Made by a program: the position numbers and the translations under genes. The notes under the pieces are model-generated. The model searched no databases, was not told the DNA's origin, and saw only the letters and a program-made list of their open reading frames with translations. This document shows, piece after piece, positions 5,402 through 31,020 of a DNA stretch of 64,000 nucleotides. Positions within the stretch are counted from its first letter, which is position 1, and every line of letters begins with the position of its first letter. This stretch comes from an uncultured Nitrososphaerota archaeon (lineage in GTDB: Archaea; Thermoproteota; Nitrososphaeria; Nitrososphaerales; CADDZS01): positions 1,344,001 to 1,408,000 of the forward strand of contig CAWCYI010000004.1 in the NCBI GenBank assembly GCA_963799845.1, given 5' to 3'.

Positions 5402-6016
5402 ATGGAGCACCAAAATCAACCAGAATCAGATCCATTCCTGCCTCCGATAGAAAACCCGCCGGGGGTACGGATGAAGATCGCATACTATTTTACGCGACGC
5501 CAATTTGGCAAGGTTATCACTGGAGTCAAGGTTCACTCTGCGAGACTCCCACCCGCATTCGGCCAGTTCTATGCAAAGGTTCCCTCGCTGGACAAGAAAC
5601 TCCAGCTACCTAGGGAGACCGTCATGCTAATCCGCGATCAGGTCTCACGCCTAAACGTCTGCCTCTTTTGCATGGACAGCAACAGGTGGGCAGAGATCAA
5701 AGAGTCGATGAATGAAGCAAAATTCAATTCAATAGAAGAATACAGGACGAGCCCTCTTTTCACTGAAGCGGACCGCGCAGCTCTCGACTATGTCAGCGAA
5801 CTAACGAAGGAAAAGAAGGTAGATCCTAAAACCTTTGCACGGTTGTCCAAGTATTACTCCGACCGAGAGATCTGTGAGATTGTCTGGTTAGTTTCAAGCG
5901 AGCATCTCTACAATATGACCAACATTGGCCTGAACATTCACTCGGACATACTTTGCGACCTCGTCAGGAAAAGGAAGAGTGAGATTGCTTCAACGCAAAG
6001 GAGAAAAAAGAGTTGA
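5402..6016 (+). CDS. Carboxymuconolactone decarboxylase/AhpD-like protein
   Basis: VSRLNVCLFCMD CxxC, FTEADRAAL. Confidence 0.8.
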   Translation: MEHQNQPESDPFLPPIENPPGVRMKIAYYFTRRQFGKVITGVKVHSARLPPAFGQFYAKVPSLDKKLQLPRETVMLIRDQVSRLNVCLFCMDSNRWAEIKESMNEAKFNSIEEYRTSPLFTEADRAALDYVSELTKEKKVDPKTFARLSKYYSDREICEIVWLVSSEHLYNMTNIGLNIHSDILCDLVRKRKSEIASTQRRKKS

Positions 6017-6223
6017 GACTTGGAAGTAGCCACTCGGAAACAGAACGTATGAATATTTGAAAGATATCTGATAATATAGCGATAACCAGAGCAACTCAGG
6101 TGGAATTTTTCTCATTTTCTTCGTGCATTCTCTGGCCGCGCCCAGCAAAAGGACTCTAGGTCTGGGTGTTACTAGTGATTCCTATGACTATCCTTGAAAA
6201 GACAGAATGTAAAATCGAAGGAT

Positions 6224-7264
6224 ATGTATCAACAAAATGAGGTAATCTACATAGGAGCTGACGTTCACTAAAGAGAAACTCAGCTAGCAATCTTTGAACC
6301 AAGAGGCACTCTTCTGCAGGAGGAGAGAATTCTCACAAAGGATCTTCAAAGCTTCATTCAGTCTCTGCCGGCGAAGGAGAAACATCTAGCTCTAGAATCT
6401 GTTGGATTCATCTACCCGTTGTACGATAAGCTCAGACAGATTCCAAGGTGCGAGGTTGCAGTAGCAAATCCGAAGAGGCTGAGACGAGATTCCGGTTCGA
6501 AGCAAAAACATGACAGAATAGATGCAAAACTACTTGGGGATCAAATCAGGACCAACTACCTCAAGAGATCCTACATGCCTGAAGAAGAAACTAGGGAGAA
6601 GAGGTTTCTCATCAACGACAGGGTGAAGTACGGCCTCAGGAGGGCGGAGCTGAGAGGCTCGATACGATGGCTTCTGAAGAGGAGGGGAATCGTCGTTGAT
6701 AGTCCGTTTAGTGCAGAGGGAAGAAGGAAGCTCAAAGAAGAGATTTCCCTCCAGGAGATAGATATCAGATTGCAGGAACTCGAACTCGTGGAATCAATCA
6801 CTGAGAAGCTCGACCCGCAGATTTCTCTGATCGTCGCGCATGATGAAAAGGCAAAACTCATGGACACGTTGCCTGGCGTTGCACCCTACACGGCTCTTTT
6901 TCTTTCATCGGCTCTTGACAACATCGATAGATTCCCCGACTCGAAACATGCGTGCGCCTACTTGGGTCTCGTTCCTTCCCTGCACCAGTCAGGTGATGCA
7001 TCTTTCACAGGTCACATAACGAAGGATGGAAACAAGTTTCTCCGGAGGAATCTGATCGAGTGTGCGAGAGTAGCTGTCAGAAAGGATCCTCGCCTCAAAG
7101 AGTTCTATACCAAGTTAAGGCGTACGAGGGGTGAAAGGAAAGCTTTGATCGCTGTGGCAAGGAAGATGGTTTCGTACGCCTATTGGATGCTGAAGAGGAA
7201 TCGAACCTACGAAGAGCTGAGCTCCTTGGACGAATTTATGGAGACAACAATCATCTCCGTCTAG
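6224..7264 (+). pseudogene. IS110 transposase/recombinase with in-frame TAA at codon 16
   Basis: MYQQNEVIYIGADVH*RETQL in frame with ORF 6419-7264; KHDRIDA, AYLGLVPSLHQSG, GHITKDGN, IAVARK motifs. Confidence 0.85.
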
Positions 7265-7345
7265 TGAATAGGGAACGCGTTTCGTAGAGGCGAATTGTAA
7301 GGAAAATGGGGACCTCCCCGAATAGTTGAATGCCAGCCTCTCCAG
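7222..7345 (+). ncRNA. Putative bridge RNA/seekRNA of the IS110 element
   Basis: Two stem/internal-loop/hairpin modules; guides GAATTTA and CTAGT match the reconstructed target, ATAGTTGA matches the circle junction. Confidence 0.6.
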
Positions 7346-7434
7346 AAAAAACGCTCGTGCAATTCCCAGCTAAACTTAGATAGTCATAGTTAAATTCATG
7401 TCAGAGTCCGGTATTGTGTACAAATTTGCTCAGT

Positions 7435-8535
7435 TTAGATATAATTCAAATCATCAGTCATCATCAAGGGAATCCCTAGGTTATCTTCACTGGAACCAAA
7501 GAGCCAGCTGGACATGGCTTCGTAGCTCCCGATGACTTTCTTTCCAAAAGGTCCTTCAGCCAACCATGAGCCTTTCCAGCGAAAAATTCTGGCCTTGCCA
7601 CCAAGATTTTTTTCAAACCAGGAGTGGAGTTCGGAGAAAAGATATTCCACGTTCAGCGGCCGAATCGTTCCCTGCAGCGGCTCCTCTCGAAAGTTCATTT
7701 TAAGATCATCAACATACTTCATCATTTCAACATCGGATGGAAGGACATGCAATTCCACAAACTCTGCTACATAGTGCTCCGAAATTCTTGATAAACTGGA
7801 AACCACAGCTCTGCATGATCCTGCCCACTCGATTATTCTCACGAATCTCGGTTCTGCTATCAAACTATCAATGGATGCAACGACATACCCGACAGTTTTT
7901 CCTTGATGCTTTATTTCGAAAAGCTGGCGATCAGAATACCTGCGGAGATATCCGAGCGTGCGAAGGAAGACCGCCATTTGTGAAATATTTCTTGCGTATC
8001 TGATCGGTTCATTCTCGTGAATTTCTAAAAGCTCCGTCGCATGCGATTCTCTATCTTCTGGCTTTACAAGGATTGTTTGAAAACCGTCCGATGTGACATC
8101 TCCTCTAGTACCGCGTTCGAAAATTGCAACAATCATCCTTCCGACTGAGGAACACCCGATTCTTGTGTAGATGCTCTCGTCTCCAGAAACCAGCAGCAGT
8201 GAGACCGGTTCTTGTTCCAGATCCTTGACAATTTCTCCAATGATTCTCGAAGCTAGTTTTTCACCGCGATGCTCCGGCAGTGTCCAAACATTACCCAGGG
8301 ATGCCACGTGAATTTGCAGCCCATTCAACGAGCAAACGCTCTTGCATACACCAGCCGAGCTTATCGGATTTCCCTTTTCATCCTCGATATAGTAAAGATT
8401 CTTTGAATTATCCGCCGAGTAGAAAAGCGGAAAATCATCGAGCAGTCCCGGTTCATTGCAGGGCCTGAACACCGTGTCTCCGGTCTTTGCAAGGGTTTTC
8501 GAAAGTTCGGGAGTGGCGCGTTTTACTTCGTACAA
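7435..8535 (-). CDS. GNAT (Eis-like) acetyltransferase
   Basis: LGNVWTLPEHRGEKLAS acetyl-CoA motif, IYTRIG; directly downstream of GH116 paralogue 2. Confidence 0.75.
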   Translation of the reverse strand: MYEVKRATPELSKTLAKTGDTVFRPCNEPGLLDDFPLFYSADNSKNLYYIEDEKGNPISSAGVCKSVCSLNGLQIHVASLGNVWTLPEHRGEKLASRIIGEIVKDLEQEPVSLLLVSGDESIYTRIGCSSVGRMIVAIFERGTRGDVTSDGFQTILVKPEDRESHATELLEIHENEPIRYARNISQMAVFLRTLGYLRRYSDRQLFEIKHQGKTVGYVVASIDSLIAEPRFVRIIEWAGSCRAVVSSLSRISEHYVAEFVELHVLPSDVEMMKYVDDLKMNFREEPLQGTIRPLNVEYLFSELHSWFEKNLGGKARIFRWKGSWLAEGPFGKKVIGSYEAMSSWLFGSSEDNLGIPLMMTDDLNYI

Positions 8536-28004: not shown

Positions 28005-28283
28005 TTACGTTTCATCTTTCAAAAATTCTATGAATTGACGTGTATTTTTACTAGTTAATTGGTGCGGAAGTCCCACATTCCGCGTACGAGATTTACTAGT
28101 AAGACCAAATCTTTGCGTCAGTATTTTGTGATTTCCGCGATTAACCAATCTTGTTCTTCGTGAGACAGTTATTGTTACTGTTTCGCCAATATTTACCAAT
28201 TGACGTGAAAAGTGTTGTAGTGCTCGTCTCACTTCACTCGAGGAGAGATTAGTTCTTTCTTCATACCAGTATCCGAATCCCAT
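28005..28283 (-). CDS. Small AT-rich hypothetical ORF reading through a repeat copy
   Basis: ATG ORF; 3' part overlaps the repeat. Confidence 0.3.
   Translation of the reverse strand: MGFGYWYEERTNLSSSEVRRALQHFSRQLVNIGETVTITVSRRTRLVNRGNHKILTQRFGLTSKSRTRNVGLPHQLTSKNTRQFIEFLKDET
28045..28102 (+). repeat. REP-like repeat family 1, full-length copy
   Basis: TTTTTACTAGTTAATTGG...TCCCACATTCCGC...GATTTACTAGTAA. Confidence 0.8.
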
Positions 28284-29300: not shown

Positions 29301-29350
29301 TTTTTACTAGTAAATTGGGGTTCAAATCCCACATCTCGTACTCGGGATTA
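29301..29350 (+). repeat. REP-like repeat family 1 copy
   Basis: 34 bp identical to 30962-30995. Confidence 0.9.
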
Positions 29351-30798: not shown

Positions 30799-30961
30799 TT
30801 ACCTTGTTGCAGTGTTCGCAACCGCAACCAATCCACTTCGGCATCATGTTCAACAGAGCGGAGGCATCTCCCATGAAGACCTGTCCGATAAAGATCGGTA
30901 GTGGCGTGTATCGATAGTCCGCTATTGAGCACATCTCTTGAAGATTTACAATCGGGTTGTA

Positions 30962-31020
30962 TTTTTACTAGTAAATTGGGGTTCAAATCCCACATTCCGC
31001 CTATGGGATTTACTAGTAAA
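30962..31020 (+). repeat. REP-like repeat family 1, best copy
   Basis: Two perfect TTTACTAGTAAA palindromes (30964-30975, 31009-31020) around an AAATCCCA/TGGGATTT hairpin. Confidence 0.92.

Follow-up and report, generated by a model that had tools for sequence, protein, structure and literature searches.

A Nitrososphaerales IS110-family element of IS1111 type with a predicted two-loop bridge RNA at the 3' end of its recombinase gene

Insertion sequences (IS) of the IS110 and IS1111 groups are established RNA-guided elements (PMC11208160, PMC11187229). Here we describe a putative archaeal element of this kind, which occupies positions 6176-7390 (1215 bp) of the window, a stretch of 64,000 nucleotides (nt) corresponding to G000:C4:1344001-1408000 in the 4.6-Mb host assembly G000. 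The element and all features named below lie on the plus strand. Judging by its sequence and that of its relatives, it is very probably a Nitrososphaerales IS110-family element of IS1111 type with a predicted two-loop bridge RNA (seekRNA) of ~120 nt, which overlaps and follows the 3' end of the recombinase gene. In the mechanism that we propose, this region would be transcribed and the RNA would bind to the recombinase. Loop 1 would select the target, and loop 2, with a 3' strand reading ATAGT, T, GA, would recognise the joined ends of the element. Recombination at a shared T would then take place between a circular form of the element (...GTCATAGT|TGATTCC...) and the site CTAG|TAAATTCGT, which is the end of a repeat resembling repetitive extragenic palindromic (REP) sequences.

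Guides and fold of the predicted RNA

The sequences used for comparison were obtained by several searches. Peptide-based scanning of species genomes identified three near relatives, two of them at contig ends of G004 (a genome of the same genus as G000) and one on a contig of a Bathyarchaeia-labelled genome, as well as one distant bacterial match; G004 carries an additional 3' end of the element. An exact 19-nt pattern from loop 2 retrieved 40 metagenome stretches. Lastly, 24 distinct 3' regions were used to build a covariance model. Run against 150 other genomes of this class, the model detected 15 further copies, which are spread over 9 genomes and belong to two additional families; these copies are referred to below as the wider set, as opposed to the close set of relatives.

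The 3' region of the element contains two similar modules, and all strings that the original prediction had placed there were found at their positions. Module 1, the putative target-binding loop (7223-7274), is closed by TCCTT (7223-27) and AGGGA (7270-74) and contains GAATTTA (7232-38), a hairpin formed by GGAGA (7240-44) and TCTCC (7254-58), and CTAGT (7261-65). On the 5' side of this loop, the right-target guide ACGAATTTA (7230-7238) is complementary at 8 of 9 positions to the right target arm TAAATTCAT (7391-7399) in the right flank. In module 1 of the relatives, the 12 nt between closing stem and hairpin end in a variable 9-mer that is the reverse complement of the right flank. Examples of such guide/right-flank pairs are ACGAATTTA/TAAATTCGT, ACCAATTTA/TAATTTGGT, GACGGTTCA/TGAACCGTC, ATCGCTTCG/TGAAGCGAT, ATCGCATCG/TGATGCGAT, ACACACACA/TGTGTGTGT and AAAGTTCCG/TGGAACTAT, while guide ACCGGCCCC fits flank GGGGCCGGT only if shifted by one base. 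Over 21 distinct guide/flank pairs, guides matched their own right flank at a mean of 8.38 of 9 positions, as compared to 3.14 (n = 320, maximum 6) for mismatched pairs of guides differing at 3 or more nt. When each of the 9 distinct guides was represented once, none of 20000 permutations reached the observed sum. Scored in the better of two registers, the 13 pairs of the wider set had a mean of 6.85/9 against 3.14 for mismatched pairs (n = 132), and 8 of these 13 reached at least 7/9, a score attained by 0.8% of the mismatched pairs.

Guide counts in the close set omit loci at contig ends that lack a parsed loop 1 or a flank. L071 and L083 were excluded as truncated or degenerate copies; L007 has the same sequence as L049, and L062, L074 and L084 duplicate L053, L066 and L079. 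L004 and L041 were not parsed by the pattern and matched by eye at 9/9 and 6/9 positions, respectively. Unparsed in the wider set were L093, which scored 6/9 by eye, and L101, which looks like a chimera (see below). The right flank of L041 (G004:C233), TGATTTGATGG, begins like the element's own left end (TGATT), and this copy may reflect either off-target activity or an insertion beside a degraded end.

The 3' side of loop 1 carries the left-target guide (7260-7267), which reads TCTAG, then T (the shared core) and then GA (the left end's first bases). The left target arm TTACTAG (6169-6175) ends in CTAG, and these 4 nt recur in the 3' strand of the loop. Across the family this strand is laid out as G, five variable bases, and TGA(A/G/C)T. 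The variable bases matched the left arm at a mean of 3.8/5 (15 pairs) as compared to 1.21 for mismatched pairs, and 4 of 20000 permutations reached the observed sum. Counted by eye outward from the junction, the five positions matched in 15, 15, 13, 10 and 4 of the 15 pairs, and the left-arm guide is effectively 3-4 nt long plus the core. Since the guides covary with the flanks across relatives, as judged by the permutation controls, their matches exceed chance. The claim that both strands of loop 1 match the target, made from this single copy, was thereby borne out for both flanks by the very check that had been proposed for it, namely a covariance model from homologues combined with guide/target covariation.

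Behind its five arm bases, loop 1 carries a TGA identical to the start of the element, and once recombination had occurred, the 3' strand of this loop would pair with the left junction without a break. We infer, by analogy only, that the GA after the core may be the counterpart of the handshake guides of IS621 (PMC11208158). Within the loop, the complement of the top strand lies 5' of the match to the bottom strand, and the same order, top-strand complement first, is reported for IS1111 seekRNAs (PMC11187229).

Module 2, the putative donor-binding loop (7286-7341), is closed by AGAGGC (7286-91) and GCCTCT (7336-41) and contains AGGAA (7300-04), a hairpin formed by GGGG (7308-11) and CCCC (7316-19) and, on its 3' side, the left-donor guide ATAGTTGA (7322-29). 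The latter equals the last 5 nt of the element followed by its first 3 nt, which is the sequence of the circle junction. It reads ATAGT + TGA, and so repeats the layout of loop 1, with five arm bases and then TGA. In the close family this guide could not vary, because that string was the search pattern. In the set found by the covariance model, the right end was CATAGA in 7 elements (loop ATAGATG), and CATGGT or TATGGT in 7 (loop ATGGTTG). Three right-end types are tracked by the loop-2 3' strand (CATAGT/ATAGTTG, CATAGA/ATAGATG and CATGGT/ATGGTTG), and this was the case in 14 of 15 elements. Two donor guides had originally been proposed. The first, ATAGTTGA, equals both ends and follows the right end, and this part of the proposal stands. 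The second, AGGAA (7300-7304), was ruled out as unsupported, since it stays nearly constant while the left ends vary (TGATTCC, TGATTAC, TGAGTCC, TGACTAC, TGACTCC, TGACTGC); the loop-2 5' strand, AAGGAAAAT, is nearly constant as a whole.

An RNAalifold consensus of 24 sequences gave a two-loop RNA over the recombinase stop with the same two modules as had been drawn from the window copy. Over these 24 sequences, 95.0% of cells were paired for the proposed pairs and 97.6% for the extended pairs, versus 40-64% when the partners were slid by 1-3 columns. In a wider alignment 94.4% were paired, and 6 pairs were changed on both sides with at least one in each helix; 16 of 500 shuffles reached 6 such pairs. 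A competing hairpin (7278-83/7287-92) is possible but was paired at 87.5%, as compared to 95.8% for the closing stem of module 2.

The predicted RNA shares part of its sequence with the recombinase gene. In the window, the right-arm guide forms the codons Asp-Glu-Phe of the protein tail, the loop-1 hairpin is also coding, and the stop codon TAG (7262-64) sits within the left-arm guide. In most relatives the stop is a TGA whose T is the constant one and whose last two bases open the hairpin, with the left-arm guide lying beyond the stop. Since the right-arm guide is within the coding sequence, the last residues of the recombinase change with the target. We found no mention of such an overlap in the available text of PMC11187229.

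Element boundaries, target repeat and recombinase gene

The left junction of the element is GTGTTACTAG|TGATTCC at 6175/6176 and the right junction GTCATAGT|TAAATTC at 7390/7391. A left terminal extension TGATTC (6176-6181), whose first three bases TGA are constant in the family, precedes the left subterminal inverted repeat CTATGACTATC (6182-6192). This repeat of 11 nt is 100% complementary to the right subterminal inverted repeat GATAGTCATAG (7379-7389), which is followed by a single terminal T at 7390. Left ends start with TGA in 15/15 relatives and in 4/4 members of a more distant group, and right flanks start with T at all 43 parsed right junctions of the close set and at 15/15 of the wider set. 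Because one T is common to element and target, 6177-7391 is an equally valid reading of the element. Its boundaries are backed by the inverted repeat, by the start of a truncated copy in G000, where similarity to the window element begins exactly at window position 6176, and by the repeated occurrence of the joined-flank sequence in G000.

Joining the flanks gives TTACTAGTAAATTC, a 14-mer that was found 14 times in G000 versus 0.03 expected, while CTAGTAAATTC was found 20 times versus 2.2 expected. The empty site and the circle junction GTCATAGT|TGATTCC, as originally proposed, are consistent with one shared T, because the joined 14-mer recurs uninterrupted in G000, and the core may accordingly be a single T. 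The 11-nt target CTAGTAAATTC was likewise confirmed by the repeats in G000, and comparison within the family extends the predicted target to about 13 nt (CTAG, T, AAATTCGT). An overlap of as much as 3 nt is conceivable for classes whose right flank starts with TGA. A two-T junction (CTAGTTAAATTC) or a 4-nt core (TAGT at both ends) was rejected, as the two-T form occurs once in G000 and some left arms of the family do not end in TAG. The empty site was deduced from the G000 repeat alone and not from BLAST searches with the joined flanks. Several of the 'spanning' matches in those searches were artefacts, since left ends and many right flanks both start with TGA.

The target 14-mer forms the left end of a REP-like palindromic repeat of ~56 nt that starts with TTTTTACTAG|TAAATTCGTGCGG and ends with TTTACTAGTAA. 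This repeat had 34 BLAST hits in G000, 16 of them at least 55 nt long, and its hairpin has a predicted energy of -23 kcal/mol. It is flanked on both sides by TTACTAGTAA and is clustered in IS-rich regions of C4, C6 and C7. Copies within the window lie at 28044-28102 and 30961-31019, and exact TTACTAGTAA is also present at 29304 and 33209. Away from the insertion site, the window contains five exact matches to TTACTAGTAA versus 0.03 expected. The insertion site of the window element is itself a degraded copy of the repeat, with 32 identities in 52 columns in a local alignment of the joined flanks to a natural copy. Repeat variants with TAAATTGGT fit guide ACCAATTTA of a sister subfamily. Many elements of the TGAACCGTC and TGTGTGTG classes (L047, L054, L056, L065 and others) have similar downstream DNA with a recurring ...GGTAGGCTGGTGCGC..., which suggests that the targets of these classes are also repeated sequences in their hosts.

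The recombinase (transposase) gene covers 346 codons (6224-7264) and is a pseudogene in the window copy, with an in-frame TAA at codon 16 (6269-6271) directly after the first catalytic Asp (GADVH*), in place of a Glu codon. For domain and family searches, the product was read through the stop with X, giving 346 residues. It matched Pfam PF02371 (Transposase_20; 80.8 bits versus a cut-off of 21.3, E 1e-22), Pfam PF01548 (DEDD_Tnp_IS110; 36.6 bits versus a cut-off of 29, E 4.9e-9) and NCBIfam NF033542, 'IS110 family RNA-guided transposase' (169.2 bits versus a cut-off of 140). Aligned to the IS621 transposase (PDB 8wt6; E 3.2e-13), the columns of the catalytic residues D, E, D, D and S (SG motif) are conserved; the roles of these residues were taken from PMC11208158. 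The product contains the motif GLVPSLHQSG, which conforms to the pattern GL-P----S(t)G, and 126 nt of non-coding sequence lie 3' of the gene as compared to 48 nt 5' of it. Together with the 11-bp inverted repeat, the Pfam and NF033542 matches support the assignment in the original prediction to an archaeal IS110/IS1111 element, and 6176-7390 is best classified as an IS110-family element of IS1111 architecture with a predicted DEDD/Ser recombinase. The best annotated protein matches were haloarchaeal plasmid proteins named 'IS110 family transposase' (Haloarcula, Natrinema, Halorubrum and others), with 34-35% identity over 93-95% of the query. A tblastn comparison with an IS5075-family gene covered 43% of the query at 28.6% identity (59 bits), a match no closer than that to IS621.

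Codon 16 is GAA or GAG in 15/15 full-length metagenomic relatives, in a truncated copy (L002) and in the G004 copy, and also in L005; the TAA of the window copy is therefore a nonsense mutation. Contigs of the sequencing runs X2 and X4 span the TAA site without difference. The lack of an intact frame concerns the state of this copy and not its family membership: an open reading frame of at least 345 amino acids is present in 11 of 16 distinct full-length elements, while 5 of 16, the window copy among them, are broken. The window copy is thus a dead relic of a family that is intact elsewhere.

G000 contains one full copy of the element, one truncated copy (81% identical over 298 nt) and one weak 50-nt match. 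The truncated copy, L002 (G000:C6:1741266-1741560), ends after ~300 nt at ...GCAAATCCGA|CTAGTTGGATG, and its left flank, GAATCTC, is unlike that of the window copy. Read data were available from four runs, each as contigs. These contigs are interrupted at the left and right ends of the element, one variant copy runs from 7396 into a different flank, and no contig joining 6175 to 7391 was found among the contigs of the four runs. Compared to the window, a contig of run X1, the probable source run, has four base differences in the region 7021-7030 and lacks one base at 7219, suggesting either a difference in assembly or the presence of a second variant that is nearly identical. G000 also has other IS110-family genes (C6:927921, C6:959902, C6:1073031, C4:1233987 and others); four of these are near-identical to one another, with open reading frames of 394-415 amino acids and only 25-31% identity to the window recombinase.

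Evidence against the proposed reading and rival explanations

Several observations weigh against an RNA-guided element as proposed here. The first group concerns the guides. Guide/flank matches were missed in L041 (the 6/9 given above), L091 (3/9), and L089 and L098 (5/9 each); L061 matches only with a 1-nt shift, the left arm of L078 matches at 2/5 positions, and by eye the left arms of the CATAGA group match at 1-3/5. The 5' strand of loop 2 shows no covariation with the left end. One element, L101 (G151:C108), is discordant in loop 2, having an ATAGATG loop together with a CATGGT end; it looks like a chimera that combines loop 2 and a proximal 3' region of the CATAGA type with a distal right end and flank of the CATGGT type. 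As to the fold, two-sided changes within the close family are restricted to the loop-1 hairpin, where 2 pairs changed in 5 sequences amount to one event, and the wider alignment was fitted to the model, which biases its pair counts in favour of the structure. The single-sequence fold of 7215-7345 has -33.3 kcal/mol (z = -0.20), and 77 of 200 shuffles were at least as stable. With a single-sequence stability no better than that of shuffles, the two-loop fold rests on comparative data, not on thermodynamics. A search of Rfam over 5800-7800 gave only two chance-level matches (E 7.3 and 9.7), neither of them on the RNA region.

Other points on this side concern the element and its mobility. A search for an orthologous empty site with the left flank gave no more than the neighbouring gene in G004, downstream of which the sequence differs, and the corresponding search with the right flank gave only diverged intergenic DNA. 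No circle-junction contig, another check that had been proposed, was seen in the contigs of the four runs. The gene of the window copy is broken, and no intact copy of the element was found in G000. Finally, the recombinase is distant from the IS5075-family enzyme, the sole IS1111-group comparison made.

The near-invariance of AAGGAAAAT on the 5' side of loop 2, despite the varying left ends, is what would be expected if only module 1 acted as a guide. Module 2 of such a short seekRNA would be a structural or protein-binding scaffold, and the protein itself would read the ends via the subterminal inverted repeats. This explanation agrees with the length of 82-96 nt of the IS1111 seekRNAs that co-purify with transposase, and with the suggestion that end recognition may differ between the two groups (both PMC11187229), and the pairing of 87.5% in the competing hairpin also fits it. 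Nonetheless, we regard it as unlikely. Over 8 nt, the sequence on the 3' side of loop 2 is identical to the right end joined to the left end; it also follows two independent base changes at the right end in 14 of 15 elements and mirrors the layout of loop 1. Furthermore, bridge RNAs with donor loops were predicted in the right end of 93% of IS1111 elements (Durrant et al., PMC11208160).

With a 9-nt right-arm guide inside the coding sequence and last residues that vary with the target, the matches might also be thought to arise at the DNA or protein level, for instance from variable last codons that encode a target-reading tail, or else by chance, without any RNA guide. Such an origin is highly improbable. 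In at least 9 guide classes, guide and flank are exact reverse complements over 8-9 nt, which base pairing predicts and a tail of three residues does not; the left-arm guide covaries even though it lies beyond the stop codon in most relatives, and chance is excluded by the permutation controls. Taken together, we favour a two-loop RNA in which both modules carry guides.

Comparison with known systems and implications

Among known systems, the element most resembles the IS1111 group (ISEc11, ISKpn4, ISPa11; Siddiquee et al. 2024, PMC11187229; Durrant et al. 2024, PMC11208160), in which the RNA likewise follows the recombinase gene. The order of the guides is shared, and close relatives carry naturally re-programmed guides. 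Also in line with that group (PMC11187229) are the inverted repeat of 11 bp (usually 11-13), the protein of 346 amino acids (330-350), the GL-P----SG motif and the longer non-coding region downstream. The terminal extensions differ, being 6 bp on the left and 1 bp on the right as compared to the published 7 + 3 or 6 + 3 bp (PMC11187229). Further differences are that the right-arm guide and, in this copy, the whole 5' half of loop 1 lie in coding sequence with the stop codon within the loop, that a single T is demonstrably common to target and donor, and that the host is an archaeon. The window protein is, moreover, only 28.6% identical to the IS5075-family transposase, over 43% of its length.

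IS621 of the IS110 group (PMC11208160, PMC11208158; 8wt6) is alike in having a two-loop RNA with one strand per loop for each DNA strand and a core that is included in the pairings, and the loop-1 bases after the core match the donor in the manner of handshake guides. Differences are that the IS621 RNA is located 5' of the gene, that the strand order within the loops is reversed (PMC11208160), that the core is a CT dinucleotide and that long subterminal repeats are absent. The catalytic D, E, D, D and S residues are common to both, as is a repetitive palindromic target. For IS621, REP sequences are reportedly the target, a finding attributed to Choi et al. in 2003. The haloarchaeal plasmid IS110-family transposases, compared by protein alone, are the nearest annotated proteins, yet their similarity is low (34-35%).

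The novelty claimed for the element at the outset was overstated. IS1111-family elements are called abundant in bacteria and archaea in the discussion of PMC11187229, and a preprint of 2024 catalogues 662 IS110 recombinases from archaea (bioRxiv 10.1101/2024.06.21.599552). Our literature search found no paper devoted to archaeal bridge RNAs, and the supplementary tables of PMC11208160 may already list some. The element is an archaeal example of the known bridge RNA/seekRNA system and opens no new class of system. Its value lies in a clean natural covariation set, a REP-like target and the overlap of guide and gene. In the annotation, the gene should be entered as a pseudogene and the 3' region, rather than being left blank, should receive a non-coding RNA feature.

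The bridge-RNA/seekRNA logic that was described for bacteria in 2024 also holds, as far as sequence evidence goes, in archaea of the class Nitrososphaeria, with one further contig from a Bathyarchaeia-labelled genome. The relatives amount to a natural experiment, in which the close set of a tight family offers at least 9 different right-arm guides and the wider set adds others, all of them matched by their flanks. They also indicate that a guide can overlap the end of the recombinase gene. The window subfamily appears to be aimed at the end of a host REP-like repeat, which suggests a similarity to some bacterial IS110-family elements. A bolder interpretation, which we put forward tentatively and hold to be possible though doubtful, is that these elements form a distinct archaeal lineage of RNA-guided IS1111-like recombinases. 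This lineage would be characterised by a single-base core, inverted repeats separated by a 7-bp spacer at the circle junction, a target guide in the last codons and stop (such that the C-terminus changes at each retargeting), at least a dozen natural reprogrammings, and homing to REP-like palindromic repeats in genomes of archaea. If this were true, programmable recombination would gain a new and compact scaffold, and the proposed IS110-Nop5 link a live archaeal system for comparison.

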